Part shown: positions 2,884 to 57,809 of the stretch, one piece after another
Layout: each line of letters starts with the position of its first letter
Numbering within the stretch: position 1 is the stretch's first letter
Source of the DNA: Cyanidioschyzon merolae
Lineage: Eukaryota
NCBI GenBank assembly: GCA_000091205.1
Contig: AP006498.2
Strand: one strand, 5' to 3'
DNA: 64,000 nt
The notes under the pieces: model-generated
Told to the model about the DNA's origin: nothing
Database searches by the model: none
What the model saw: the letters and a program-made list of their open reading frames with translations, nothing else
Made by a program: the position numbers and the translations under genes

Positions 2884-3856
2884 GATCCTCCTCGGCTTGC
2901 CGTAATTGGTTCTTGACTCGAAGCAGCATGCTGGTCTTCCATGGATCCAGACGACTAATCGAGTCATATTCGGAGACAACTTGCGTAAACGCCTCAATAT
3001 CACCCGACGTCACTGCGTCCATGAGGTCCTGGAGGAAGCGCTCCTCACGGGACCCCGCCAGCGACGGATCCCATTGCAGGTAGTTCTGAAGCGCCCGCCG
3101 CGCTCCAACCTCATCCGAGGCGCACAAATGGCACATGGCGGCTCGCATGAGTGTATCCTTCGCATGATATTTGAGGAGAGCGTTCTCGAGGGAGAGTTTG
3201 GCGACCTGCTCGAACGCTTGAATCGCTTGTGCGTAGTCTCCTGCTAGCGCTTTGTACTCCGCAACTTTCACAAGACATGAGTTCGCGTGCGAACGTGCGT
3301 CCTCGCCAAGGTATAGATCGGCAGCCTGTTGGTATGCTTCGGCGACGCGCTCGTCGGCGGCGGCACCACCGGTTGTCTCGTTCGCGATAGACTCGAGGAT
3401 CTCGGCGCGTTCCTTGGCTAAACGCGCGGCCATGCCGAACCGTCCCCGCTCGGTATGGATGCTCATCGCTGACTCGAGCGCAGTCACCGCGGCCGCTGGG
3501 TCGGCTTCCGGTTTTTTCAGACAGTTGGCTGCGTCCACGTACGCGGAGGCCGCCTCGTGTTCGTGGTCTTTGATGTGAGCATAGCAGTCCGCGCAGCGCC
3601 GGTACGCCTCTCCCGCCTGAGTCCACTTTTTAGCAAGTTTAAAGTAGTTTCCTGCCCTTTGGAAGTAGCTGGCTGCCTCTTCGTACTTGGCAGACGCGGA
3701 TGAGAGGCCGAATAGACGTGCGACAGAGCGGGCCGCCGCCTCCGCTGCGGCAAACGTCGACTCACCCGCGTTGAGCAGCACGTATGCCTCGTCGATGCGT
3801 GGGTCACGCTCGCGCGAGCTAACAGGCTTTTTGTCACCGGATCCGAACAGACCCAT
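2876..3856 (-). CDS. NAPA: alpha-soluble NSF attachment protein (alpha-SNAP/Sec17)
   Basis: TPR-like repeats with typical alpha-SNAP motifs (GNYFKLAKKWTQAGEAY, AASAYVDAANCLKK, ESAMSIHTERGRFGMAARL, AEILE). Start set at the ATG of MGLFGSGDKK (nt 3856). The listed longer ORF begins at a non-conserved extension. Confidence 0.85.
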   Translation of the reverse strand: MGLFGSGDKKPVSSRERDPRIDEAYVLLNAGESTFAAAEAAARSVARLFGLSSASAKYEEAASYFQRAGNYFKLAKKWTQAGEAYRRCADCYAHIKDHEHEAASAYVDAANCLKKPEADPAAAVTALESAMSIHTERGRFGMAARLAKERAEILESIANETTGGAAADERVAEAYQQAADLYLGEDARSHANSCLVKVAEYKALAGDYAQAIQAFEQVAKLSLENALLKYHAKDTLMRAAMCHLCASDEVGARRALQNYLQWDPSLAGSREERFLQDLMDAVTSGDIEAFTQVVSEYDSISRLDPWKTSMLLRVKNQLRQAEEDLT

Positions 3857-4545: not shown

Positions 4546-5520
4546 TCATTCACTTTAGTATGTTGCTCAGAGAAGGACATTTGTGTTGCCATGACTTGGC
4601 GCTGGCGATGCGTCAAAGCTGATGATTATGGCGCTAAAGAATCCCGCCAGACGCCGTGCGTCAACAACTGGACCCGTTAGGCGGTAGGTCACCTGCAGGC
4701 GTGTTTTCCAGGGTCCAAGCATCTGCACTCGCACCAGCATGTCAGTGGGTGCAGGCACGCGCCACCCGATCAACGCCTCATAGAGCGGGTGCGCCGGCGG
4801 TAATATCATCTCTAGGAATCGACTGGAAACGGTACAGATGCGTACCGCTCGCAGGGTTACTTCCACGGCGGAACGTCTCCTGAAACGGGTAAGCACGCGG
4901 GTAGAGGGATAGGTGTTCCTTCTCACCAGCGGGTGCCAAGCAAAGGCCTGCGTCGCGCAACTGCGGTGCAATTCACAAACGTTGGCGGAGGGGAAATTCG
5001 CTCCCCAATATTCATCCTATCCGCAAAGTTTCTACAACGGGTCGCAGCACAAAGGCAGGCCTACATACGAAGACTCTCGGATCCCAGGATCACCACGAGA
5101 CGCGACCGCGCTGCAGGTGAACCACACCTCCAGCCGACATCCTCCGTGGCATGACACAGCAGCGCAGACTCCGTGCGACGTCCGCACCGGCAAGGCGGGC
5201 GCTCTGTCAGACGCTCACGGCAGACTCGGTGTGCACAACGGAACGTTCGCATTTACCAGTATCTCCGAGGGGCAGCATGGATTGTGGACGTTGATGTTAG
5301 GCGGCAAAATGGACGCATCCCCGATCACTGGTGTTCCATGACGTAATCAGAGATGCCTGGTCAGCATGAACGTTCTTTCGATCAAAAAAAAATCGCCCCA
5401 GAAACAGCTGCCCTATGGACGCAAACGAGGAAAACCCGCACACCAATCCATATCGCCAGCTTACAATCGCTAACACACATCACGCAAGGTGCTCCATCGG
5501 GCAATGTTGTGCGAATCCGA

Positions 5521-11789: not shown

Positions 11790-12385
11790 CAGAACGAGTA
11801 CCGTGCTTTCGGCGGGATCGCTTATAGTCGTTCCCCTCAATTGTGGTCCATCTCCTGGGGCGTGTCGCTGTACGCTTTTTCGCGGCTCATAGCAGACGCG
11901 TTCGAAGTATACTGATTTTTAAAAAAATCTGAGGAAAAGTTATGGATAAGGTAGTCGAAGGATGCTGGGGGCCCGTCATCGACGAGTTCGATAAAAACGA
12001 AAAATCTTTTCCTCGTCGAGAATGGAGCGAAGAAGAGCAAGTGACGAAGAAGAAGATGACGATGAGAGATAGACGAGAAAAGGTTTTTGCCCAATGGGTC
12101 GATGACGAGACTGCAGTGACATAGAGCGCGCGAGTTCTAGCAATCCTTGTACTGGTCAGTTCCACCCGCGGCAAGACACGCATGGAGTTCGTGAACCGAG
12201 ACTTTGACGCCGTTACTCATATACGGATATGAGCGGTGCAGGAGAAGAGGCCCGAGAAGCTGACGAGAGCCAACTTCGTGGGGGAACCTCTCAAAGTTGA
12301 ATTGTATGAGGAGAAGTTGAAGCCAGTAGTAGCTGGCCGGTCAAAAAAGTCTGGCAGGCGTCTGCAGCTAGGTAGGTAACAAGTT
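11790..12385 (+). mobile_element. ~0.6 kb non-autonomous Fanzor/TnpB-derived element (family-2 copy)
   Basis: Left end is homologous to the long-copy left ends (catagcc ... ttcatttga block). It then jumps to the zinc-finger/RuvC-III coding region (EKSFPRREWSEEEQ ... KTRMEFVNRDFDAV ... ANFVGEPLKVELYEEKLKPVVAGRSKKSGRRL, with in-frame stops). It ends with the conserved caggcgtctgcag tail. Confidence 0.55.
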
Positions 12386-29879: not shown

Positions 29880-32800
29880 GACTCTGCGTTAGGAAAAGAG
29901 ACCCAACCAGATGCGGAGAAGGAGGCAAAAAGTCCTCATGATCCACCTAGATGCAAAATAACCAGAGAAAGCAGCTCAGGAAAGAGCCCGAAGAAGAAGA
30001 AGACCAACAAGAAAAGACAGAAGAATAGAGAGAAGAACTCCTGAACGAGCCCATCATGAGTGATCCCCCGAAAGGGCACCCCAGCGGGAACTCAAGAGAG
30101 CCGTCGCCAAACCGAGTCACCTACTCACAGCGCTGACGATCCGAAAAGCCGTGCATGCAAATCTTTTGACCAATTGGCACGCGAGTATGTAGATGGGAAT
30201 CAGAAGATTGCCAGAGAACTGGGACTGCTTGCACCAGAACGCAACAGTAGCAAGCCGCAGTACCTCAAACGACTTACCAAAACTCGGATTGATGAATGCC
30301 ACCGACTCTATGAGATCGTCAACCGCACCGCCGTACGCGCCAACGCCGGAGACAAGGAAGCGAAGGCAGCGCTACCGGCGCTACAGGCGCAACATGAGGA
30401 CGCTATCGAAAGAACGAAAAAACGTTCCAGAGAAGACAAACGAGAGGATCGAAACCGCAAAATCGCCTCCCTAGCGAAATCTATGCTAGAGAGCACCAAC
30501 GAAGATGAGACCTGGCGCTCCATTCGATCGCGACTCGACCCACCAAAAAAGTGCTTGGGGCTCACACCAATTCTGTATAAGGAAGAGCTGAGGACGGAGA
30601 GTGCCTTAGTGAATGAGGCCTGGATAGACCACGGGACAGAGCTGCATGAAGACGCAACTGGGCACTGCCAAGACCCAATCTATTGGCACCAATATGCCGC
30701 AGAACTACCGCGCCTCGACCCGGTACCGGTATGGAACGACCCAATCTTCTGGCCTGAATCTGTCCGGACCCTCTTAAGGTCATGCAACCGCAAAACACCT
30801 GGCTTTAACGGTATCGCGGCGGAGTGGATGAAACTGGTGACCCCAAAAGACGGGACAACAGGGACACCGTCGATACCAGATGAACCTGACACAAGCTTAG
30901 GCAAACGCCTTGTGGAGCTCATCCAAGGCATGTTCGAAGAAGCGTACATCCCGGATGTATGGAGGACTGCCGAGGTCGTACCGATCCTCAAAAAGGACTC
31001 CCACATACACAGACATGAACAACTACCGGCCTATCGGCCTCATCCCGTCAATCATGAAGCTACTTTTGCGCCAACCTCACGAACCGGATCCAGAGGCGCC
31101 TCGAGGAACGCAAGTTCTTCGCCCCAGGGAGGGCTGGATTCCGGAGCCGCGAGGAGTGCATGAGCCATTTCCTGACCCTCACTGAAGTGGCGCAACGTCG
31201 CTTTATTCGTGACCGACAACCAACTTACGTATGCTTCATTGACTTCCAAAAGGCCTTTGACACGGTCCCGCACGAGGCTCCATTTCTGAAGATGGAACGA
31301 GCCGGAGTCTCCGGAAAGTGCTTGGCGTTCTTCAGTGCGCTCTATGCAGACTCGCGGATGCGCATCCGACTGGGCGACAGCTCAAGAACCCCTTCCAGAA
31401 GAATCCACCGTGGACTGCGACAGGGCGAGCGCGCATCCCCGCTCCTTTTCAACATCTTCATCAACGATCCGCTGAAAAACTGCAGACAATACGGGCTTGA
31501 GGTGCCGTGGATAGACTGTGGAGATGCCCGATGAGGAGCCCTCACATGGGAACCGCCTCGCAGGCCTTCTATTTGCGGACGATGTCGTGCTGTTGGCACC
31601 CGCCCCGGAAACACTTGCGGGTAGCATGGAACAAGTCAGCGACTGGGCCGATCGCTGGGAGATGAGCATAGGAGCATCGAAGTGCGGCGTCATGCTCATC
31701 CATGGAGACTCGCAGCGCATTCGCAATCGCTCGTGGCGGTTGCAGAATCAGGAAATTCCGATCGTGGAAAACTATCGCTACCTGGGGGTCGGTCTAACGC
31801 CGACGATCGACGAAAAGGCACACGTCGACGAGATGATCGCCAAGATGCATAGACGTACAGCGATCGCACGCCCATTCTTATCCGACCCCTCTATCTGCAT
31901 AGCAATCCGTACGAGGGCACGAAGGATGTGTATCATCCAGCCTGCGACCTGGGGTGCTGAATGGTGCGGCATAAAGCACCCAAATGCCTCACGTCTGCAG
32001 ACAGCCGCCAACAGGGCAATGCGACTCGTTGTTGTTGTTGGATGCTCAGTGCAGAGCAGAGCGACCAACCCGCTGACACTCGGACTTGAACTCCAAATAC
32101 CCTCAATAGAAGCGATAGCAGCAGGCTGCCGGGCACGCATACGGGCCAAAAGGGTCCACCAAGCGCACCCGGTTCAGTCGGATTTTCATGCAGACCCCAA
32201 CGCACCGCAAGAACACTTGGATGAAATCGACGCAGATTGGGCTGAAGCGCCTCTTAGACGAAAGCACGCTCCCTAATCGTTCCCCAGAAATGTAGCAGGC
32301 TCCCGTCGCCTCAAGCGAACCGTCCAAACAACAATATGGGAACGTAGACACGGAACAAGTCGTGCCAGTAACGCCGGCTTGACTCTCTACCGGAACTACA
32401 ACCTAGCATACACATGCAAGTACTGGTGGGAGGCGCTGGAGTTCCCGGGACTTGCTCGAGGTACCCAGTGGCTCGCGAAAATCCACGTTGGTGGCTTCTG
32501 GCGACCATCACCGGCTCTAAGCCGTATAGGAACACTGGAATCGCACTGTCCCTGCTATCGAGACGAGACCCCTCGAGACGCTGACATATTTAGGCTTACA
32601 GTGCCCGCGCTGGAAGCAGGAGCGCAGCGAGCTCCTTGGCGGACAGCAGCAGCTGGACATCACCGTGATAGCAAAAGGCCGGACACTCACTTTGAGTGCA
32701 GCACTGGCAACTGATGGTCCGCTAACGGAGCCTCAGCGCTCATTAGTGGCGAACAAACTCACATGCTACCTTCTAGGCGGAAGGTCCAGCGAATCGGATG

Positions 32801-32890: not shown

Positions 32891-33480
32891 ATGCATGATC
32901 ACGAAGGAGAGAGGCGGCTCCCAGGATATATCCTAACAGTCAAGTTTCTCCAGCGTGTCGTGCAGCGAAGACAAGCCTGCATCCCCAGACTGTACGAGCA
33001 CAAACTGACGACGAGACCCGATTCTACGTCGGGTGAACCACACCTCGAGCCGATGCCCTCTGGGGTATAGAAAAGCAGTTCTAGCTCGATGAACTATCTG
33101 CTCCAGCATTTAAGGTGCAAAGGCGGATACGGAACGGCAGGTACGAGGCACACCCGATAGGACTTATGAAACGACCAGAATATCCGAGAAGAAGTATAGG
33201 TAATGGAACTTGGAAGTAGGCTGTTTGATGGATAATTCACCGCACATTGGAAAACACAAAAAAGTAAGAAAAGAAAAATGCGCATAGTCGGAGAACGCTG
33301 GCCAAAGGAAACGTTTTGTTAATGAAAAAAATGCCGCCGTTGAAGGAAAACGTGATCTTGATATCTAGCATGTAGCTCTAATGTAAAAGTTGTATTTTCG
33401 TTAACTTCATAGCCAAGTATAGTTTTCAGTTCATTTGAGTTTCAAACCTCAAACATGTGTATTCAATTGTTTTGTCGCAG

Positions 33481-33488
33481 TATATAAC
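33481..33488 (+). promoter_or_regulatory. candidate TATA box ~55 bp upstream of the Fanzor-like ATG (33542)
   Basis: gcagtatataacag. Conserved in copy C (tgtgtataacag) but mutated in copy B (cagtatcgaacag). Confidence 0.25.
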
Positions 33489-33541
33489 AGAAGCGTTCCA
33501 GGAGCTTTCTTTTTCAAAAAAAAAACTAAAAAAGGAAAGTT

Positions 33542-35755
33542 ATGAAAAAGCAAGTCGACGATCCTGGAGGCCGAGGGTCGCCGGCTGCCAGAAAAAAAAC
33601 AAAAAACAGTGCCAAGTCCAGAAGAAAAGGAAAAGAAGAAGGACCAAAGGGGGAAGGGGGGAGACTCTACGTCGAAGGATGCAAGAAAGACGAATGTACG
33701 ACGAGATGGTGGTGAAAACCTTTCTTCATGGCCATATCAAGGATCCCTACAGGGAAAAGTTGCAAGACGCTATCAGAAACCGTGTCGACTCGTACTCCAA
33801 GAGTATTGTCAAGGCGTCGTCAGGACTGATGCATTTGGTACGGGAGATGTATCGCGACGTGACGCACATGGAAACGGTGGAGATTCCGGACGAGTTTTTC
33901 GATAAGAAGTTTATTCGTCAGCTGATGCTTGGTACAGAGGAAGCGCGGAGGGAAAATGTATGAGTGCATGCCCTCCACGAAAAACATCCCTTTTACAGCT
34001 TCAACGGTACTCGATACAAGGGTGACCGGGATATTTACAGCTATGGGGCGATGAAGTACCTCACGAATCTGAAGAATCCTTTGACAGTGAACCTCGAACG
34101 TTTCATGATACGCGCCGTGTTTGCACTCGATCCCGGGCATCTCTCCCAAAGGGATATGGGCGATTACCAATGGCATCACGAACAATCGCCGGCGTGTAGA
34201 TGGGATCGAATTTGTCGACAAGAAGGCGTCAAAAGAGATCACGAATGAAGCTTCTGTTATCCGTGCGGCTATACAAGTGCACCGTGCAGTTTTGGGGCTG
34301 GCGAATCCGACAGACAAGATATCAGAGTTGAAAAAAGATAAGGAAAGATACGATCGTCTCGTCCTACGGTATTTTGTGTTTTTGGACCGAGAGCTCGATC
34401 GCAAAGCGGAGATGAAGCTGAGCGAGGAAAAAAATGAAGAATGGGAGAGACGGAAGGCGTTCCTAATGGGCGAGCGCTTCAACGTGGTTCCGTTGGGCAA
34501 CATCAAGTCACATTTTGTGACTATCGACTCCGGCGTCCTTTACGGCATCATGACTGAGACCAGTCCCGAGTTCGATGTAAGGAGCACAGAGATCACCGCC
34601 GAAACCCGCGAGACGTACTGGAAGAATATCTTCAATTTCAAAGGGCTCAAAGTCAGCAAGAAAAAGGAATTCACTGGGTTGATCGAAAGCGATGGAGTAG
34701 CCATGTGTGTACACTATCTGCGGTTGTTGAAAGATCGTCCAGTTCTGCCCTCGGCTTCGCGCTCGGCGAAACATGAAGAAAACAAACAAGCGGATCCTGC
34801 GACGCAGAAAGTGCAGGAAAACGACTTTGTCGTTGGCGCGGACCCCGGAAACACAAATATCATATCCATCGCTGTATCCAAGCTTGCGGACGATGGTTCT
34901 GACGGTAACTTGCGTCAGAAACACATGCGTCTTCTGAGGTTCTCGAGCGCAAGAGACTAAAGAGAATCCGGAATAATGAATGTGCGGAAGAAAATTGAGA
35001 CATGGAATGCAGGAATAAAGGACCACTTGGAAGCTATGAGCGAGGTGACGAGCCGAGGAGCGGGCTTTCAAGCTTTTCTGAAATTCATGAAAGTTCGCGT
35101 TGCTCATTGGGAGGCGCTGTGGGAGGAGTATACAAAGCCTCGGTGGGCTCGTCTGCGTATGAATCTATACTGTGGGAAGCAGCGGGCGTTCGCGAACTTT
35201 TTCAATCAGTTGAGCGCCCTGAAGGTGGATGTGAGTCAGAGGCTCGTCGTAGCATACGGAGCAGGGCGCTGGAAGACCCAAAAAGGGTGTACACCAGCTC
35301 CAACGACGAGAGCGCACAAGGAGTGTGCACGGCGTTTCGTAACGATACCTGTAGATGAGTTTCGAACATCGTATACACACCACGAGCTGGATTGTACACT
35401 TCAGAGGGTCGAGATGGAAAAGTGCCAGAGGAGCCCTGAAGATATAATAAAGTATGGACCGCTGACGGAGGAGCAAATGGAAAGGAGGGCAAAAGTTCGG
35501 CGACTACTTGCATTAGTAAGTACAACCAATCATGGCAAGAAACGTATGGAATTCGTGAATCGTGACTTTGATGCCGCCATCAATATCAGGAAATGTGCGG
35601 TACTGGAGACGAGAGCTCCAGAGTGGACAAGAGAGAACTTTAATGGACAACCTCTCAAAGTCGAACTATATAAGAAAAAATTGAAACTAGTAGTAGGTGG
35701 ACGTTCCAAACAAACTAGGAGGCGTCTGCACGTCAGTTGGAGACGATTTGTCTAA
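33542..35755 (+). pseudogene. Fanzor/TnpB-like nuclease gene of copy A, disrupted
   Basis: Homopolymer frameshift after MKKQVDDPGG. In-frame TGA at ~33961. A +1 frame change inside 34121-34248 shared with copies B and C. In-frame TAA at 34958 shared with copy C. The 3' part (34976-35755) is intact. Confidence 0.7.
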
Positions 35756-35870
35756 GGCGCGTTTGCCGCCACTACGGTACACTGCTGGCAGCAACGTTTT
35801 TCATTTGAAAAACGTTTGGCGGCGAGCTGCTCATTTCCCACGGGCAGACACCTAAAGCGGGTCATCTGGT

Positions 35871-45568: not shown

Positions 45569-46904
45569 TGCACGAGGACATTGTGCCGTGGGGTGATACC
45601 TGGGGGAAACCGCGGGGCGACCCAAAAAATGGGCAGGTATAGACTCGCAATTCATACTGAGTGCACAGGGTCCAGAACCGCGCGAACAAGTGTGTCTCGG
45701 GGAAGCACGCTCGGTAGATGTACAGCGCCAAGCCATTCCACAGTTTTTGCCGAATAATCAGGAAGTTTCTCTGAATGTTTGCGTAGGTCGGCAGCCTTCA
45801 TGCGAGGTTGTGACTATCGCCGCTATGGAACGTGGACGTAAAGGCGGGATGCAGCACAACACAATGCTTATTCTCTGTATCGACACCGGTTTCGGACCAA
45901 AATGGAATGCTAGCAGCTCGCTCGGCTCCTTTTCTTTGATTTTCTCGAACTCGATTTCAGGTGTACAACCCCGGTAATCCAAGTACAGCAATAGAGACCT
46001 ATGTTTTCGAATTTAGAACTAGGATTCTCGGTCTTGTTTTCAGAGTGGCTCTTTCGATGCCTTGGGGCTGGAATTCGTCTCGCCATTAGCATCAATATCG
46101 TGCGCGACGCTTCCGACAGAGTGTTCGTCGCGGAACCGATACCATCATGCGATTCATATGTACGAGCTTGCACTCTTGTCAGTTCCGTAGGTGCGGCACG
46201 CTAAAATCATGCATTCGTCTGGTTCTCGATCGTTCTATTTCATGGCAACTCGTGGGCGCAGCAACCTCCGCGCCTGGATTGACGAGGAATCAAGTCGGCA
46301 TCGTCCTGTGACGACTGCTTCATCAGCTCATCCCAAGGTCCCATTGAAATTGTCACGTCAAAGAAGCGCTTCTTGCGGAGAGTGTACCACTGCTTTGCTC
46401 GAAGGTTGCGTAGTGGTATCGGATTCCATCGGCTCGGGCTCCAGCCATGGTTCTCCTGCCAGTACCTGTTTCATCACGGAAAACATCACGTTCCACGATC
46501 CCTTATCGATTGGAACTGTGCGCTTGCAGCAGACAGCGTACTCGCCCACAGGATCGTGCAGAAGAAGCACGATATCCCAGGGTACGGCAATGTGCGGAGA
46601 AAAGCAGGGCATTGACGGGAGTTTTCTGTGCGCATCGAGCGCATGCACAGAGCGATGGAGCGCGTCCTCTCGTGCTACAGGGCGGTGCCCGAGATGCAGT
46701 GGACAACATGGCAACTCCTGACAACAGCCAAGCGGTACCGCCGCGAAGGACGCACCGAGTCTGTGTACGAAGAAGATGAAAACGTCAAGAAAAATGTTGA
46801 TCAAAAATGTCCTCTGAGCACACAGTGCGTCAATATTGCCAAGATAATGTTTCGGGACCATAGGCTGTATAGATATTCAGCCACACACGGGCGCCCCTCA
46901 GTCT

Positions 46905-47430
46905 TTTTCGACCGGCCTCCTGCTATCGGTTTCATTTTCTCCCTGCACATTTCGAGTCTGAGAGGTTGTCCAACTAAGCTAGATCACTCGGCTCAGCTCC
47001 TGGGGTCTCGTCTTCTGCACCACACATCCTTTGATATTGATGGTGGCGTTGAAGTCTCGGTACGCGAGCCCCATGCGTTTCCTGCCTCTGGTTGAACTCA
47101 TCAACGCAGGGATTCCCCGAACGCGTGCACTCTTTGTCACTACAGTCTCGTCATCGCCTCGTCGGGCAAACACTTGCTCTCGCTTCTCTCATCTCTTCTT
47201 CTTCGTTCGATGGTCGACGAGCAGAGGGTTTTTCTGATTTTTGTCGAGCCCGGCGAAACCGGGCGATCCAGCATCCCCAGCTGCCATTTCCATACCTTTT
47301 CCTTGGGTTTTTTATTTCTTTGAATCAACGCACTTGGAGCACATCTGCTATAAACCGCGAGAAAGCATTTGATGAGACACTCCCGGGCGTGGAACACACC
47401 TGAGGGAAAAACTGAACGCATCGTACGGGG
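46905..47430 (-). mobile_element. ~0.55 kb non-autonomous Fanzor/TnpB-derived element (family-2 copy)
   Basis: Minus-strand ORF 46979-47173 encodes KRMGLAYRDFNATINIKGCVVQKTRPQE (RuvC-III). Nucleotides 46905-47050 align with the 3' ends of copies B and C (ctgagaggttgtccaac ... cacatcct-tgatattgatgg). The left-end block at 47330-47430 aligns with the 60.5 kb and 11.8 kb copies. Confidence 0.55.
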
Positions 47431-49046: not shown

Positions 49047-49243
49047 TGCTGGCACCGAACACCGTTCGCAGTCGGACGATGCCGACCGTGTACAGTAGTG
49101 GCGGCAACCGCGCCCTAGACGAAACGTCTCTAACTGACGTGCAGACGCCGCCCTGCCGTTTTCGACCGGCCACCTACTACTGCTTCCACCTTCTTCTCAT
49201 ATAGTTCGACTTTGAGAGGTTGTCCAACAAAGTTTTCTCTTGT

Positions 49244-51300
49244 CTAGTCTGGAGGTCTCGTCTCCAGCACCGCACATCTCCTGATATTGATGGCGGCATT
49301 AAAGTCTCGGTTCACAAATTCCATACGTTTCTTTCCATCATTGTTCGTACTTACTAATGCGAGTAGTCCACGAACTTTCGCCATCCTTTCCATTTGCTCT
49401 TCCGTCAGCGGTCCATACTTTATTATATCTTCAGGGCTCCTCTGGCACTTGTCCATCTCCACTCTCTGAAGTGTACACCCCAGTTCATGGTGTGCATAGG
49501 ACGATCGGAACTCGTCTACAGGTATCGTAACGAAACGTCTTGCGCACTCCTTGTATACCCTCGTCGTTGGAGCTGGAGTAGTGCCTTTCTTGGGCGCCCA
49601 ACGCCCTGCCCCATACGCTACTACGAGCCTCTGACTTTCATCCTCCTTCAGGGCGCTCAACTGATTGAAAAAGTTCGCGAACGCCCGCTGCTTCCCGCAA
49701 TACAAATTCATTCGCAAACGAGCCCACCGGGGCTTGCTGTACTCTTCCCACAGCGCATCCCAATGGGCGATGCGAACTTCCATGAATGTCCGAAAAGCTC
49801 CAAAGTCCGCTCCTCGGCTAGTCACCTCGCTCAAAGCTTCTAGGTGCTCCTTCATTCCTGAATTCCAAGTCTCGATTTTCTTCCTCGCATTCCTCATTCC
49901 CGATTCTCGATAGTATCTCGCTCTGGAGAACCTCAAAGGACGCATGTCTTTCTGACGCAAGTTACCATCAATGCCATCTTCCGCAAGCTTGGATACAGCG
50001 ATGGATATGATATTTGTGTTTCCGGGGTCCGCACGAACGACAAAGTCGTTATCCTGCACTTCCTGTGTGGCAGGATCCGCCTTCTTCCCATCTTCATGCT
50101 TCGTCGAGGACGGAACTGGACGATCTGTCTTCAAGCGCCTTTAGTGTACACACATGGGTATTCCATCGGTTTCGTCTGAAAGTGAGCAACTTTTGCTTGC
50201 TCACTTTCAGACGTTTGTAATCGAAGATATTCTTCCATTACGTCTGGCGGGTTTCGCCGGAGAACTCTTCCCTGCGAAGATCGAACGCCGGACTGATCTC
50301 AGTCATGATGCCGTAAAGGACGCCGGAGTCGATAGTCACAAAATGTGACTTGATGTTGCCCAACGGAACCACGTTGAAGCGCTTGCCCATTAGGAACGCC
50401 TTCCGTCTCTCCCATTCCTCATTTTTTCCTCACTCAGCTTCATCTCCGCTTTGCGTTCGAGCTCTCGGTCCAAAAACACAAAATACCGTAGGACGAGACG
50501 ATCGTATCTTCCCTTATTTTTTTCAAATCTGATATCTTGTCTGTCGGATTCGCCAGCCCCAAAACTGCACGGTGCACTTGTATAGCCGCACGGATTACAG
50601 AAGCTTCATTCGTGATCTCTTTTGACGCCTTCTTGTCGACGAATTCGATCCCATCTACACGCCGGCGATTGTTCGTGATGCCATTGATAATCGCCCATAT
50701 CCCTTTGGGAGAGATGCCCGGGATAGAGCGCAAATACGGCTCTTATTATGAAACCTTCGAGGTTCACTGTCAAAGGATTCTTCAGATTCGTGAGGTACTT
50801 CATCGCCCCGTAGCTGTAAATATCCCGGTCACCCTTGTATCGAGTACCGCTGAAGCTGTAAAAGGGATGTTTTTCGTGGAGGGCATCCACTAGCACATTT
50901 TCCCTCCGCGCTTCCGCTGTGCCAAGCATCAGGTGTCGAATAAAGGTCTTGCCGAAAAACTCGTCCGGAATCTCCACCGTTTGCATGTGCGTCACGTCGC
51001 GATACATCTCCCGTACCAAATGCATCAGTCCTGACGACGCCTTGACAATACTCTTGGAGTACGAGTCGACGCGGTTTCTGATAGCGTCTCGCAACTTTTC
51101 CCTGTAGGGATCCTTGATATGGCCAAGAAGAAAGGTTTTCACAACCATCTCGTCGTACATTCGTCTTTCTTGCCGCCTTCGACGTAGAGCCTCCACCTTT
51201 CAGTCCTTCTTCTCTTCCTTTTCTTCTGGACTCGGCACAGTTTTTTGTTTTTTTTCTGGCAGCCGGCGACACTGGGCCTCCGGGATCGTCGACTTTTTTT
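49244..51300 (-). pseudogene. Fanzor/TnpB-like nuclease gene of copy B, disrupted
   Basis: The start codon is lost (ctataaaaaaagtcgacg versus ttATGaaaaagcaagtcgacg in copy A). There are several frameshifts in the 5' half. The 3' half (296-aa ORF 49244-50134) has RuvC-I to RuvC-III intact and reads through the position where A and C carry TAA. Confidence 0.7.
50173..50213. repeat. perfect 17-bp inverted repeat with a 7-nt spacer, private to copy B
   Basis: cgtctgaaagtgagcaa-cttttgc-ttgctcactttcagacg. Copies A and C carry a non-palindromic sequence at the same place. Confidence 0.8.
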
Positions 51301-52032
51301 ATAGCTTTCCTTTTTTTTTGGAAAAGAACACTCTTTGGACGCGTCTGTTCGATACTGCGAAAAAAAACTCGACTAGACTTGTTTGAGGGTTGAAACAAAA
51401 ACGAACTGAAAGACTATACTTGCCTATGAAGTTCACGAAAATACAACTTTTACACGAGAGCTAGACGCTAAGGATCACGATTACGTTTCCCTTCAACGGT
51501 GGCATACGCGTCGTGTCTCATGACTGCCCGATCCCCCAGATGCGCTCATCGAGCGCGATGCATGCGCTGCGCGAGACGCCTCACCGATCCATGAAGGACA
51601 CGTGTCCGACACCCCGTCTTGGCACATGCGTGTTCGCATCGCACTGCAGCCAAAATAACGTATCGTAGATCGGAAACGCACGTAGAATGAACTCTTGCTA
51701 TAGGTTCTGTCGCTGGCGCCGACGCTACTGCCCATCGCAGTACCGCCCTGACATACAAGGGGATGCAGGGGCCTGGCACGATACCCCTCGACGCTTCTAT
51801 CAAAAGCGTAGCGTTCTCTGCGGCTTACCGTTGTGTGGTTAAGGTATGCATCACTCTTCTCAATAGGATTTTCGTTAGTTTTATTGATCATAAACAAACA
51901 AGGTACGGTAGGATTCCTGAACACGGATACAGGTTTATTTCCTCTGCTTGTTATGTATGCTGCACGGTCGCTGGAACAGTGTCCGATTGTATGGGTGCTG
52001 CGTATCGAGGCTTGTCGCGCGCTCCAAGCACG

Positions 52033-54414: not shown

Positions 54415-54449
54415 GACACTCTGGAAACCTCGTTCGCCACGGTAGCACC

Positions 54450-56950
54450 GCCACAGCCGTTCTAAGTCGGACGACGCCGACGGTATCCCGTAGTGGCGGC
54501 AAACGCGCCTTAGACAAATCGTCTCCAACTGACGTGCAGACGCGTCCCCGTCTTTTTCGACCGGCCACCCACTACTGCTTCTAACTTTTTCTTATATAGT
54601 TCGACTTTGAGAGGTTGTCCAACAAAGTTCTCTCTTGTCCACTCTGGAGGTCTCGTCTCCAGCACTGCACATCTCCTGATATTGATGGCGGCATCAAAGT
54701 CACGATTCACGAATTCCATACGTTTCTTGCCATCACTGGGTGTACTTACTAATGCAAGTAGTCCACGAACTTTTGCCCTCCTTTCCATTTGCTCCTCCGT
54801 AAGCGGTCCATACTTTATTATATCTTCAGGGCTCCTCTGGCACTTTTCCATCTCCACTCTCTGAAGTGTACAACCCAGCTCGTGGTGTGTATACGATGTT
54901 CGAAACTCATCTACAGGTATCGTAACGAAACGCCGTGCACACTCCTTGTGCGCTCTCGTCGTTGGAGCTGGTGTACACCCTTTTTGGGTCTTCCAGCGCC
55001 CTGCTCCGTATGCTACGACGAGCCTCTGACTTTCATCCTCCTTCAGGGCGTTCAACTGATTGAAAAAGTTCGCGAACGCCCGCTGTTTCCCACAGTATAG
55101 ATTCATACGCAGACGAGCCCACCGAGGCTTTGTATACTCCTCCCACAGCGCCTCCCAATGAGCAACGCGAACTTTCATGAATTTCAGAAAAGCTTGAAAG
55201 CCCGCTCCTCGGCTCGTCACCTCGCTCATAGCTTCCAAGTGGTCCTTTATTCCTGCATTCCATGTCTCAATTTTCTTCCGCACATTCATTATTCCGGATT
55301 CTCTTTAGTCTCTTGCGCTCGAGAACCTCAGAAGACGCATGTGTTTCTGACGCAAGTTACCGTCAGTACCATCGTCCGCAAGCTTGGATACAGCGATGGA
55401 TATGATATTTGTGTTTCCGGGGTCCGCGCGAACGACAAAGTCGTTTTCCTGCATTTTCTGCGTCGCAGGATCCGCTTGTTTGTTTCCTTCATGTTTCGCC
55501 GAGCGCGAAGCCGAGGGCGGAACTGGACGATCTTTCAACAACCGCAGATAGTGTACACACATGGCTACTCCATCGCTTTCGATCAACCCAGTGAATTCGT
55601 TTTTCTTGCTGACTTTGAGCCCTTTGAAATTGAAGATATTCTTCCAGTACGTCTCGCGGGTTTCGGCGGTGATCTCTGTGCTCCTTACATCGAACTCGGG
55701 ACTGGTCTCAGTCATGATGCCGTAAAGGACGCCGGAGTCGATAGTCACAAAATGTGACTTGATGTTGCCCAACGGAACCACGTTGAAGCGCTCGCCCATT
55801 AGGAACGCCTTCCGTCTCTCCCATTCTTCATTTTTTTCCTCACTCAGCTTCATCTCCGCTTTGCGATCGAGCTCTCGGTCCAAAAACACAAAATACCGTA
55901 GGACGAGACGATCGTATCTTTCCTTATCTTTTTTCAACTCTGATATCTTTTCTGTCGGATTCGCCAGCCCCGAAACTGCACGGTGCTCTTGCATAGCCGC
56001 ACGGATTACAGAAGCTGCATTCGTGATCTCTTTTGACGCCTTCTTGTCGACAAATTCGATCCCATCTACACGCCGGCGATTGTTCGTGATGCCGTTGGTA
56101 ATCGCCCATATCCCTTTGGGAGAGATGCCCGGGATAGAGTGCAAATGCGGCGCGTATCATGAAACGTTCGAGGTTCGTTGTCAAACGATTCTCCAGATTC
56201 GTGAGTCACTTCATCGCCCCATAGTCGTAAATATCCCGGTCATCCCTGTACTGGGTACCCTCGAAGCGGAATTCCGCGAAGTTTTCGTGGAGGGCATGCA
56301 CCCGCTCATTTTCCATCCGCGCTTCCTCTGTACCAAGCATCAGCTGACGAATAAACTTCTTATCGAAAAACTCGTCCGGAATCTCCACCGTTTGCATGTG
56401 CGTCACGTCGCGATACATCTCCCGTACCAAATGCATCAGTCCTGACGACGCCTTGACAATACTCTTGGAGTACGAGTCGACGCGGTTTCTGATAGCGTCT
56501 CGCAACTTTTCCCTGTAGGGATCCTTGATATGGCCATGAAGAAAGGTTTTCACCACCATCTCGTCGTACATTCGTCTTTCTTGCATCCTTCGACGTAGAG
56601 TCTCCCCCCCTTCCCCTTTGGTCCTTCTTCTTTTCCTTTTCTTCTGGACTTGGCACTGTTTTTTGTTTTTTCTGGCAGCCGGCGACACTGGGCCTCCAGG
56701 ATCGTGGACTTGCTTTTTCATCACTTTCCTTTTTTTGTTTGTTTTTGAAAAACAACGCTCTTTGATCCCTTCTGTTATACACAGCAAAAAATCAATCGAG
56801 CATTTTTGCTTGAGGTTTGAAACACAAATGAACTGAAAACTGTACTTTGCTACGACCTCAACGCAAACACAACTTTTACAGCTGAACAAGACGCTTCTGA
56901 TCGCGATTGCGTCTCCCTTCAACGGCGACGGGCGCTTCGTGTCTAATGCC
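54450..56950 (-). mobile_element. Fanzor/TnpB-like transposon, copy C (~2.5 kb)
   Basis: Collinear with copy A end to end. It shares the left-end block (cattagacacgaagcg ... ccgttgaagggagacg) with copy B and the right end (ggcgcgtttgccgccactacgg ... gtcggcgtcgtccgacttagaacgg) with A and B. Confidence 0.8.
54510..56721 (-). pseudogene. Fanzor/TnpB-like nuclease gene of copy C, disrupted
   Basis: Intact N-terminus MKKQVHDPGG ... KKRKRRRTK ... MQERRMYDEMVV. Private TGA at ~56206. The same +1 frame change and TAA as copy A. Intact 259-aa RuvC-II/ZnF/RuvC-III segment (54510-55289). Confidence 0.7.
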
Positions 56951-57809
56951 TGCCAGACAAGGATGTGCGCGTATCGGGCGCACTCTATAGAACAAAGAAC
57001 AGATACTGACCATTAAATCGCCACGAGATAACGATTTCTTTCCCCTCTGCGATAAACGTTGAGACGGGGAAAACTGTCGGTACTTTCGAAAGTTTACCTT
57101 CTAGACGCAAGGTCCCGCGGATTGCACGAGTCTCCCAGGCTCGTGCTTCACGCTCCGCCACTGGCAGGTGCTTTCGTGACATCTGAGCAACTCGTCCGTA
57201 ACGCACTCCACTCTGGGACTTGGAACGGGTAGCCGGCGTCTGGGCGTTGCCCATGATGCAGTGGGCTCCTGGTATATCGCGTTGCGCTGCCGCAGGCACT
57301 AGCTCAGTCTGCGCAGCTTGCAGACTCCTAGAACGACTATGAGCCACGACTCCGTTTCAGGTGAAGCGTTCCTCGGTCCGACGCCCTCGGAGGTATGGCA
57401 AAGCCGTTCAGTCTCCGTGATGCATCGGCATCAGCGATATAACCGCAATTGCGGGTGCTCAAAGCAGGTAATCGGCGCTCGATAGAGCATAAGAATCGAC
57501 CATTACATCCGAAATGATTTATGGGTCATCTAACTTGAGGGTAAGTGCATCATGATGGATGCTTTCCCGAAACCCAACATCCATCCATCCATCCATTCTG
57601 CAATCTGGGATCCATGGTCCACGAAAACGTTTTGTCACTGTAAAAAAATCAGCGCTGCCGCCGTTGCAGAGCGCCTCCAAGTTTCGCCAAAAACTCGTTG
57701 CCAAACGAGCGCTGCTATTGTTCTAGTTTACCGCTGTTGTCGTTGTTGTTGCCGTTGCTGGTAAGATTTCGTTAGGGCGCTGGTGCCTCAAGTTGGCGCC
57801 AACCAGGGC

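Follow-up and report, generated by a model that had tools for sequence, protein, structure and literature searches.

A frame change common to three Fanzor1 pseudogenes of Cyanidioschyzon merolae is most probably a plain one-nucleotide insertion in a tract of common origin

Three long copies of a Fanzor1 element, together with two fragments, lie in a 64-kb stretch of Cyanidioschyzon merolae 10D chromosome 16 (the window), and in each of the long copies, A, B and C, the coding sequence passes from an upstream frame to the +1 frame through a region where both frames are open. Such an arrangement raises the question of whether a full-length protein is made by recoding or splicing, whether two proteins are made, or whether the gene is simply broken. 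The reading that we favor, with a probability of about 0.93, is that the frame change is a plain, non-programmed insertion of one T in a decayed CMe-1A Fanzor1 gene, and that the three copies share it through a tract of common origin. The coordinates of the copies, the insertion and the associated features are collected in Table 1.

Copies A, B and C are CMe-1A-type Fanzor1 transposons on the basis of species, protein family and architecture, and thus belong to a family that is already described; the frame change itself is an ordinary pseudogene lesion. The species is shown by four window proteins that match C. merolae 10D proteins exactly. There are ~150 CMe-1A copies in the C. merolae genome, some of which still encode an intact Fanzor1, a persistence of coding capacity that its describers called puzzling (Bao & Jurka 2013, Mob DNA 4:12, PMC3627910). 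The resemblance to CMe-1A extends to the many diverged and mostly decayed copies, to Fanzor1 as the sole recognizable gene, with no transposase encoded, and to the terminal inverted repeats, none of which were found in the window element; target-site duplications are likewise not evident. The extra T sets the window copies apart from CMe-1A as published, as a sub-lineage that does not figure in that paper's discussion (PMC3627910). The element is ~2.5 kb long, with relatives reaching ~3 kb through expanded internal 75-nt repeats. The flanks of A, B and C are mutually unrelated, and these are therefore separate insertions; the 5' end of copy A is ~70 nt shorter than those of B and C and adjoins a retroelement-derived segment. 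A palindromic sequence near the 5' end of the element appears by eye to be poorly kept in the alignment of copies.

Table 1. Features of the three Fanzor1 copies (window coordinates)
Feature	Position	Strand	Basis or remark
Copy A	33331..35824	+	alignments of A, B, C and metagenome loci; family HMM matches
Copy B	49053..51560	-	extra T = complement of 50723
Copy C	54446..56985	-	extra T = complement of 56134
Extra T (copy A)	34131	+	nucleotide alignments with L001, L002, L007, L008-L012
N-terminal coding remnant, frame 1	33664..34130	+	hmmsearch, distant-homologue profile and A1 profile
Out-of-frame run-on of frame 1	34132..34248	+	38 codons + TGA
C-terminal coding remnant, frame 2	34133..35755	+	holds RuvC-I and RuvC-III; broken by TAA 34958
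Tract nearly identical in the three copies, with the insertion at its left end	34132..34540	+	recombination or gene-conversion tract
Private in-frame TGA of copy A	33961..33963	+	sense codons in B and C
In-frame TAA common to A and C and their orthologues	34958..34960 (C: 55305-55307, -)	+	alignment
Two further frame changes, Lys/Arg-rich N-terminal region of copy A	33592..33662	+	alignment, three-frame translations

The preliminary description of this DNA had recognized a TnpB-like nuclease with a RuvC-I motif, which is correct, and the nuclease is Fanzor1. A single repaired protein used as the query gave no useful Pfam or PDB match and a profile of homologues was required; searched with a profile of 18 of these, the sequences of solved Fanzor1 proteins were matched at 5.7e-14 (PpFz, 9CF0-3), 3.3e-9 (SpuFz, SpuFz1 entries 8GKH and 9CEU-9CEZ) and 0.23 (GtFz, 9CER-T). 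The fold was examined on a homologue rather than on the window pseudogene, namely P0044, which is 42% identical to repaired copy A and whose AF2 model (pLDDT 83.3, pTM 0.76) matches SpuFz with E=4.3e-17 and TM 0.63/0.70, with Cas12f and Fanzor2 next at far weaker scores. As modeled, this family member is predicted to have the Fanzor/TnpB fold, with WED, REC and a split RuvC with an inserted domain. The window copies retain both the RuvC-I DPG and the RuvC-III NRD..AA.NI motifs of the solved proteins (in copy A, ADPGNTNI at 34838-34861 and NRDFDAA at 35558-35578), and the family-invariant Glu (E492 of P0044, within EYTKPRW) is present and is a candidate catalytic residue. Unlike the solved proteins, the window copies are pseudogenes; identity in structural alignment is only 12-16%, and the zinc-finger cysteines appear by eye to be partly replaced in the window family.

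The overlap of frames in all three copies is real, and the peptides quoted for it in the preliminary description are exact. In copy A, frame 1 is open over 33964-34245 and ends at TGA 34246-34248, and frame 2 is open over 34109-34957, an overlap of 137 nt, or 128 nt if counted from the first TTG at 34121. The range across the copies is 134-230 nt, with 134 nt in B and 230 nt in C, where the frame-1 stop is mutated and the run-on extends to 69 codons. The distances reported for the downstream frame also stand: ~95 codons without an ATG followed by ~140 aa to RuvC-I are 97 codons to the first in-frame ATG (34412) and 143 codons from there to the RuvC-I Asp codon (34841).

Homology to the family changes frame within a few nucleotides, and the surplus is exactly one. 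In copy A the family HMM matches frame 1 at 33664-34131 and frame 2 at 34121-35668; in profile searches generally, frame-1 matches end at 34119-34131 and frame-2 matches start at 34121-34166. Family homology in frame 1 stops at ...NLERFMIRAVFAL(D/Y), and the 38-codon run-on beyond it is not homologous to any member of the family. When T34131 is deleted, the distant-homologue profile matches in a single uninterrupted HMM domain (positions 13-609) that scores 555 bits and keeps a high posterior probability on passing the site. The site reads GA[T]CCCGGGC in A and TA[T]CCCGGGC in B and C, and TACCCGGGC or TACTCGGGC in relatives. The ancestral reading would have been ...A-L-Y-P-G-I-S..., encoded by GCA CTC TAC CCG GGC ATC TCT in a single frame, and the extra T would shift the ribosome to another frame, by chance open for 38 codons.

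Comparison of the window copies with 13 further loci, a sample to be set beside the ~150 family copies in the genome, finds seven loci that lack the T and have one continuous frame (L001, L002, L007, L008/L009, L010/L011 as two copies, and L012). Two of the seven come from the metagenomes in which A, B and C also have orthologues, and one, L007, is an apparent orthologue of copy C, an assignment resting on 38 nt of flank in a metagenome contig of 2 kb, possibly a chimeric one. The products of six ORFs (P0001-P0004, P0009 and P0011) cross the site without interruption, and distant intact homologues are colinear across it as single polypeptides. The T is present in three orthologous loci from independent metagenome assemblies (A/L006, B/L004 and C/L005), which are 97.8-98.8% identical to the window loci over 4.9-13.5 kb. 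A scan of metagenome DNA returned only T-bearing sequences, its pattern being specific to the TCTCCC variant, and the census was completed through contigs encoding homologous proteins.

These comparisons bear on several other readings. That the T is an error of sequencing or assembly in the reference has next to no likelihood. The site adjoins short runs of C and G, a circumstance with nothing specific to it, but the T is found at three separate window loci and in all three independently assembled orthologues. A small spliceosomal intron spanning the frame change, and restoring one frame in the mRNA, is similarly close to inconceivable. Formal GT...AG pairs with lengths congruent to 1 mod 3 do exist, such as 34100-34151 (52 nt) and 34196-34235 (40 nt), but the sequence is colinear with the homologues codon for codon on both sides, the surplus is exactly 1 nt, and the switch falls within 34119-34133, too short an interval to contain an intron. 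Every candidate either deletes at least 13 family-colinear codons or keeps the non-homologous run-on, none has a GTAAGT- or GTGAGT-type donor (read by eye over nine bases around each GT), and introns are scarce in C. merolae, with only 27 in the genome (PMC4829280). The cryptic intron suggested earlier is thus excluded by colinearity, with no GT-AG removal restoring it, and the same colinearity excludes the two-ORF design suggested alongside it. The latter would have the upstream and downstream ORFs, which are indeed long and overlapping, translated separately and acting together; it is highly improbable given the 97 codons without an ATG in the downstream frame, the breakage of both copy A ORFs themselves (TGA 33961 and TAA 34958), and the continuity of every intact homologue, as one polypeptide, through this point.

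All three copies are pseudogene members of the Fanzor1 family, each with at least five ORF-breaking lesions. For the N-terminal lesions the reference is the continuous ORF of L002 (MKKKVHDPGG...RRRRQERRLY), against which the A-run of copy A at 33592-33599 has 8 A rather than the 7 of the intact ORF, and a G-rich insertion of +7 nt lies within 33647-33662. At the position of the TAA at 34958, copy B and L007, L001 and L002 have TAT/TAC (Tyr). Copy B has deletions at the copy A equivalents of 34337 (-1 nt), 34428 (-1 nt) and 34676 (-2 nt) and stops at 50240, 50143, 49246 and 49132. Copy C additionally carries TGA 56208, TAA 55307 and two N-terminal frame changes, of -1 and +7. A single shift could not restore a full-length product in any copy, given its other stops and frameshifts. 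Under the reading of a plain insertion, these additional lesions would have been gained by the copies or be common to them, leaving three pseudogenes.

The preliminary description preferred a single ~730-aa product made by a +1 shift. Slippage of this kind is known to occur at Pro codons, and programmed +1 sites are found in antizyme, yeast Ty1/Ty3 and bacterial prfB, with -1 orfAB sites in IS1/IS3 transposases. The window resembles these in having overlapping frames in a mobile-element gene and, with the +1 sites, in a P-site codon that could re-pair in +1: at CCC-GGG, a P-site tRNA-Pro could slip from CCC to CCG and so give one full-length Fanzor1. The possibility of re-pairing at CCC-G may allow a trace of slippage, and the frame change is common to the three copies and their orthologues with both frames open through the overlap. 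Unlike programmed sites, the window frame change is not conserved in relatives, which have one continuous frame at seven loci and in six ORF products, including the apparent copy-C orthologue and, farther out, the distant intact homologues; the A-site codon is GGG rather than a stop; no significant local RNA structure was found by folding (z = -0.03) and no stimulator is seen; and neither frame is otherwise intact in A, B or C, each T-bearing copy being broken further so that a ~730-aa product is not possible. The sharing of the frame change is accounted for by the common tract. The matches listed for 'Fanzor' and 'frameshift' are genome-editing or virus-survey papers, with none on programmed frameshifting in Fanzor among those entries. 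Programmed frameshifting is therefore very unlikely, and the proposed single product gives way before relatives in one frame (PMC3627910; the preliminary description had named such copies as what would make this a plain inherited insertion), the 1-nt surplus and the extra lesions.

A more elaborate version places slippage outside the window: an otherwise intact T-bearing copy among the ~150 CMe-1A elements would keep the sub-lineage active by low-level +1 slippage of tRNA-Pro at CCC-G, with the window copies as its decayed offspring. If true, slippage could make enough full-length Fanzor1 for sub-lineage activity, and we give this only slight credence; the T was probably never compensated by ribosomal slippage.

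Both frames had been noted as open despite ~10% nucleotide divergence between copies. They are open, but divergence in 34132-34540 is only 2.0-3.2% (8/409, 9/407 and 13/407), and as a result the overlap had almost no opportunity to gain stops. Nor is its length more than chance gives, since 21.6% of simulated 1-nt insertions in the gene family run on for at least 38 codons. The Ka/Ks of each frame, proposed as a test, was computed but is too noisy over the 37-codon overlap to decide between frames: Nei-Gojobori estimates against L001/L002 give dN/dS of ~1-2 for frame 2 and 0.5-0.7 for frame 1, values that if anything lean away from the true frame, in a poorly conserved linker with ~20 differences. 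Pooled dN/dS for the orthologous pairs A/L006, B/L004 and C/L005 is 0.63, lower than 1 (p=0.025) and higher than the family value of 0.38 (p=0.011). The copies are thus not shown to be strictly neutral; conversion from copies under selection could be the source of this value.

The copies are mosaic. Overall divergence is 6.2% between A and C, 11.5% between A and B and 12.6% between B and C, and the insertion lies in a tract of ~400 nt with far lower divergence, so that A, B and C are not independent witnesses to the frame change. Between A and B there are 9/407 differences in the tract as against 131/786 next to it, in 34541-35340 (Fisher p=3e-16), and between B and C 13/407 as against 130/786 (p=4e-13); the control pair A-L001 has no such dip (61/409 as against 133/800, p=0.46). 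Copy B differs from A and C by 15-25% on both sides of the tract, and by ~17% next door. In quartet site counts, C groups with L007 outside 34140-35340 (20:1 and 8:2) and with A inside it (20:3), and copy A resembles B at 33940-34040 and C at 34140-35340. The stretch 33880-34039, where A and L006 contrast by 22:0 informative sites, was considered as a very recent gene conversion but is not relied on, as the L006 contig terminates within the element and its assembly may have switched onto the copy-C orthologue.

How the T became shared is a separate matter from what it is. The ~400 nt holding the lesion would have a recent common origin, giving the T to all three copies, and recombination or gene conversion between copies would explain the sharing. 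The inherited defect offered as a fallback in the preliminary description stands in substance, though the form given to it there, a single defective progenitor mobilized in trans, is one route out of two, the copies being mosaic. This route is a variant of the plain-insertion reading and differs from it only in how the lesion became shared: the T arises once in a progenitor, and A, B and C are independent trans-mobilized products without exchange between resident copies. It agrees with an element that has Fanzor1 and no transposase, all of whose copies thus rely on a trans-acting function (PMC3627910), with the unrelated flanks of separate insertions, and with the T being carried by all the sequences recovered that have the TCTCCCAAAGGG variant. 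From a simple common progenitor one would not expect a copy B that is 15-25% from A and C on either side of a 2-3% tract, nor the changing affinities of copy A, nor an apparent copy-C orthologue without the T, and we regard this route as possible but on the unlikely side; recombination before insertion could rescue it in modified form.

Conversion or recombination between resident copies is at least as likely as the defective progenitor, given the mosaic copies, the location of the T in the exchanged tract and the apparent copy-C orthologue that lacks it. The mosaic copies may thus have arisen by ectopic gene conversion between resident copies or by recombination before insertion, and we infer exchange between resident copies rather than before transposition. 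The C. merolae genome is 16.5 Mb and has very few repeats. That the Fanzor1 pseudogenes scattered through this very compact genome are homogenized by ectopic gene conversion, with inactivating lesions spread between resident copies, has in our estimate slightly better than even odds. The mosaic structure suggests sequence exchange between dispersed Fanzor1 elements, which could affect the persistence of coding capacity in an old family. The value of the locus is otherwise mainly negative: a frame change common to repeat copies is evidence for recoding only where those copies are independent of one another and carry no other defects, and neither is the case here. The precise lesion map of three CMe-1A copies is useful for rebuilding an active C. 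merolae Fanzor1.

An Rfam scan of the element, made with omega-RNA in mind, gave no match, and RNAalifold of the 3' region of 9 copies gave a structure without covariation support (covariation term +1.96). In the predicted folding, 35687-35700 is paired with 35765-35777 in a conserved 12-bp long-range helix.

The three long copies of the element (A, B and C) are decayed members of an already known Fanzor1 transposon family, and the change of reading frame that they have in common is an ordinary 1-nt insertion that was inherited; its presence in all three is attributed to a single recent origin of the surrounding tract. Repeat finding and a joint alignment of the three sequences delimit these copies, each of ~2.5 kb, with overall identities of 93.8% (A-C), 88.5% (A-B) and 87.4% (B-C); four long open reading frames in the window exactly match annotated C. 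merolae 10D proteins (locus tags e.g. CMP252C). The product of copy A with its frame change mended (the repaired protein) has no direct match in single-sequence searches of Pfam and PDB, and 63 homologues in a large protein collection. A profile of 18 homologues matches solved Fanzor1 structures from Parasitella (5.7e-14) and Spizellomyces (3.3e-9), and an AlphaFold model (pLDDT 83) of the intact homologue P0044 matches SpuFz (E=4e-17, TM 0.63-0.70); the homologue group is therefore Fanzor1. The family has been described previously as the single C. merolae Fanzor1 family, CMe-1A, with about 150 copies that share roughly 80% identity with a consensus of ~3 kb (Bao & Jurka 2013, PMC3627910), and in agreement with that account no terminal inverted repeats were found at the element ends.

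Table. Fanzor1 copies in the window, their lesions, associated features and junction sequences. L-numbers are fetched loci of the same family.
Feature	Coordinates	Strand	Details
Copy A	33331-35824	+	repeat finding and alignment; junction GAT CCC GGG C ATC TCT
Copy B	about 49053-51560	-	repeat finding and alignment; junction TAT CCC GGG C ATC TCT
Copy C	about 54446-56985	-	repeat finding and alignment; junction TAT CCC GGG C ATC TCT
L007 (closest relative)			junction ...TAC CCG GGC ATC TCT
L001			junction ...TAC TCG GGC ATC TCT
L002			junction GCA CTC TAC CCG GGC CTA TCC
Extra T	34131 (A); complements of 50723 (B), 56134 (C)		
Other lesions, A	33592-33599; 33647-33662; 33961; 34958		+1 in A-run; +7 G-rich insertion; TGA; TAA
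Other lesions, B			+1 in A-run; deletions of 1, 1, 2 nt; four stops
Other lesions, C	56208; 55307 (stops)		-1 in same A-run; +7 insertion; TGA; TAA
Frame-1 ORF, A	33964-34248		ends ...GVKRDHE-TGA
Frame-2 ORF, A	open from 34109		first TTG 34121
T-completed inverted repeat	34026-34033 / 34129-34136 (A); 50715-50725 / 50821-50831 (B); 56121-56136 / 56232-56247 (C)		
Fanzor fragment	12071-12366	+	
Fanzor fragment	46892-47155	-	
Retroelement-derived segment	29083-33331		RT-like ORF 31518-32276
75-nt unit	34764-34841		
Long-range helix	35687-35700 / 35765-35777		12 bp
5' GC-rich palindrome	51535-51560 (B); about 56960-56985 (C); about 3680-3700 (L001)		e.g. GCGCTC-GAT-GAGCGC in B

At the junction the sole length difference from relatives is one T. 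The homologous product P0002 reads through in one frame (NLERFLIRAVVALYPGLSRNGKWAIINGI), as do several other homologous ORF products. A profile of distant homologues (30-42% identity; P0044 is 42% identical to the repaired protein) matches frame 1, that of the upstream ORF, up to 34119 and frame 2, the downstream +1 frame, from 34166, and with closer relatives added to the profile the switch is confined to 34121-34131. With T34131 deleted there is one domain over profile positions 13-609 (555 bits), whose posterior probability stays high where the two frames join; when the frame-1 translation is left unshifted, similarity is gone beyond ...ERFMIRAV. In these searches the match to the homologues passes from frame 1 to frame 2 precisely at the T. 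An intron is ruled out, because the surplus of 1 nt leaves no space for one; every enumerated GT-AG candidate would remove colinear codons, and the whole C. merolae genome contains just 27 introns (PMC4829280). These homology results also rule out a design of two separate ORFs.

The preliminary description favoured a programmed +1 shift giving a single ~730-aa product. Its observation of overlapping frame-1 and +1-frame ORFs is borne out by the sequence and its ORF list, with overlaps of 137, 134 and 230 nt in A, B and C respectively, as is the lack of a downstream ATG for ~95 codons with ~140 aa before RuvC-I; in copy A the first in-frame ATG (34412) lies 97 codons into that frame, and from it there are 143 codons to the RuvC-I aspartate. 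The overlap length is not beyond chance, because when four coding sequences of the family are given simulated 1-nt insertions at each codon boundary the shifted frame stays open for at least 38 codons after 21.6% of them, and because local divergence is low. The copies differ at only 8-13 positions in about 408 across 34132-34540, and the ~10% divergence cited in the preliminary description does not hold there. The 37-codon overlap is a variable linker in the family; dN/dS within it is noisy and gives the true frame no advantage. RNA structure in the frame-change region is unremarkable (z = -0.03). Between orthologous pairs dN/dS is 0.63, a value not clearly neutral and yet above the 0.35-0.40 of the more constrained family at large; it could reflect conversion from copies under selection.

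Among the fetched loci the T is carried only by A, B, C, their related-strain metagenome orthologues and a collapsed contig, L003. Each of the orthologues is colinear with the window: L006 (A) over 13.5 kb at 98.6% identity, L004 (B) over 4.9 kb at 97.8% and L005 (C) over 9.1 kb at 98.8%. Seven other loci (L001, L002, L007, L008/L009, two L010/L011 copies and L012) lack the T and have one continuous frame, the pattern that the preliminary description had itself named as grounds for rejecting its reading in favour of a plain inherited insertion. Since the two metagenomes that yielded L004-L006 are also the source of L008 and L009, uninterrupted and T-bearing copies coexist in essentially the same genome. 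Scored relative to intact relatives, A, B and C are pseudogenes, and because each has several lesions besides the T, no single frameshift could yield the ~730-aa product from any of them. We regard programmed frameshifting at the junction as highly improbable. The A-run and its equivalents contain 6, 7 or 8 A according to copy, within a Lys-rich N-terminal (NLS-like) region; its length changes have shifted the frame independently in L001 and in all three window copies, and the run is a homopolymer hotspot for inactivation.

The inherited insertion is shared by copies that are mosaics. By sliding-window divergence, copy A at 33940-34040 has 5 differences per 100 vs B and 24 vs C, and over 34140-35340 it is nearly identical to C (about 1.4% different). 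Only in 34132-34540 does copy B come as close as 2-3% to A and C, and over the next 300 nt it is 15-25% off; the A-B dip is 9/407 vs 131/786 in adjacent sequence (p=3e-16), with none in the control pair A-L001 (61/409 vs 133/800, p=0.46). L007, a 2-kb metagenome contig that is possibly chimeric, matches 37/38 nt of the copy C 3' flank past the common element end, where A, B, L001 and L002 diverge. The match points to L007 as the copy C orthologue, without the T, in a lineage about 5% diverged, as supported also by quartet counts joining C with L007 at 33880-34139 (20:1) and 35341-35780 (8:2); C joins A at 34140-35340 (20:3). The simplest reading of the shared T is that the tract bearing it was copied between elements, with the A-C tract also carrying the TAA at 34958, although the exchange may instead have preceded insertion. 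A, B and C are therefore not independent observations. The earlier alternative, that all copies inherited a defect from one progenitor, stands as to the inherited 1-nt insertion, with its sharing traced to a tract of single origin.

A (33998-35789) and C (54476-56267) form a 1.8-kb inverted repeat, 96% complementary, with 18.7 kb between its arms. Lying on one chromosome, the pair is a likely target of gene conversion or inversion within that chromosome. The extra T completes a smaller inverted repeat in each copy, with its upstream arm CCGGGATA within conserved GDRDIY codons and its downstream arm TATCCCGG (TA-CCCGG in intact relatives); in copy C the arms reach 16 nt, are 88% complementary and have 95 nt between them. 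Such a repeat is the expected signature of quasi-palindrome template-switch mutation, and we speculate that the insertion may have originated in this way.

Two short, more diverged Fanzor fragments comprise the C-terminal RuvC-III region and element 3' end (profile positions 556-609, E about 1e-7, 68-74% nucleotide identity to A). The retroelement-derived segment adjoins copy A at its truncated 5' end, and its L002 equivalent contains RVT_1; the L001 and L002 elements adjoin 89-91% identical segments in the opposite orientation vs copy A, which suggests repeat clustering or nested insertion. Immediately 5' of the RuvC-I aspartate is a 75-nt (25-aa) unit, ...KHEE.KEA.PA.QEV.DND.VV., single in A, B and C and tandem in relatives (2 to about 6 units by eye; L001 about 5225-5373, and proteins P0010, P0013, P0017, P0021 and P0039), and in the alignment L002 is longer by 75 nt and L001 by 225 nt. 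The unit makes up an acidic linker of variable copy number within the nuclease gene. A conserved long-range helix, CAGTAGTAGGTGG / CCGCCACTAC(T/G)G, spans the ORF stop codon and has equivalents in 9/9 aligned copies; with its inner hairpin (GGCGTCT...AGACG) it is a candidate omega-RNA scaffold, with no compensatory changes among the nine copies and no Rfam match. The palindrome near the element 5' end is loosely conserved among copies. Copy C and L008/L009 have about 90 nt of extra upstream similarity in common, and the element 5' boundary is therefore heterogeneous.
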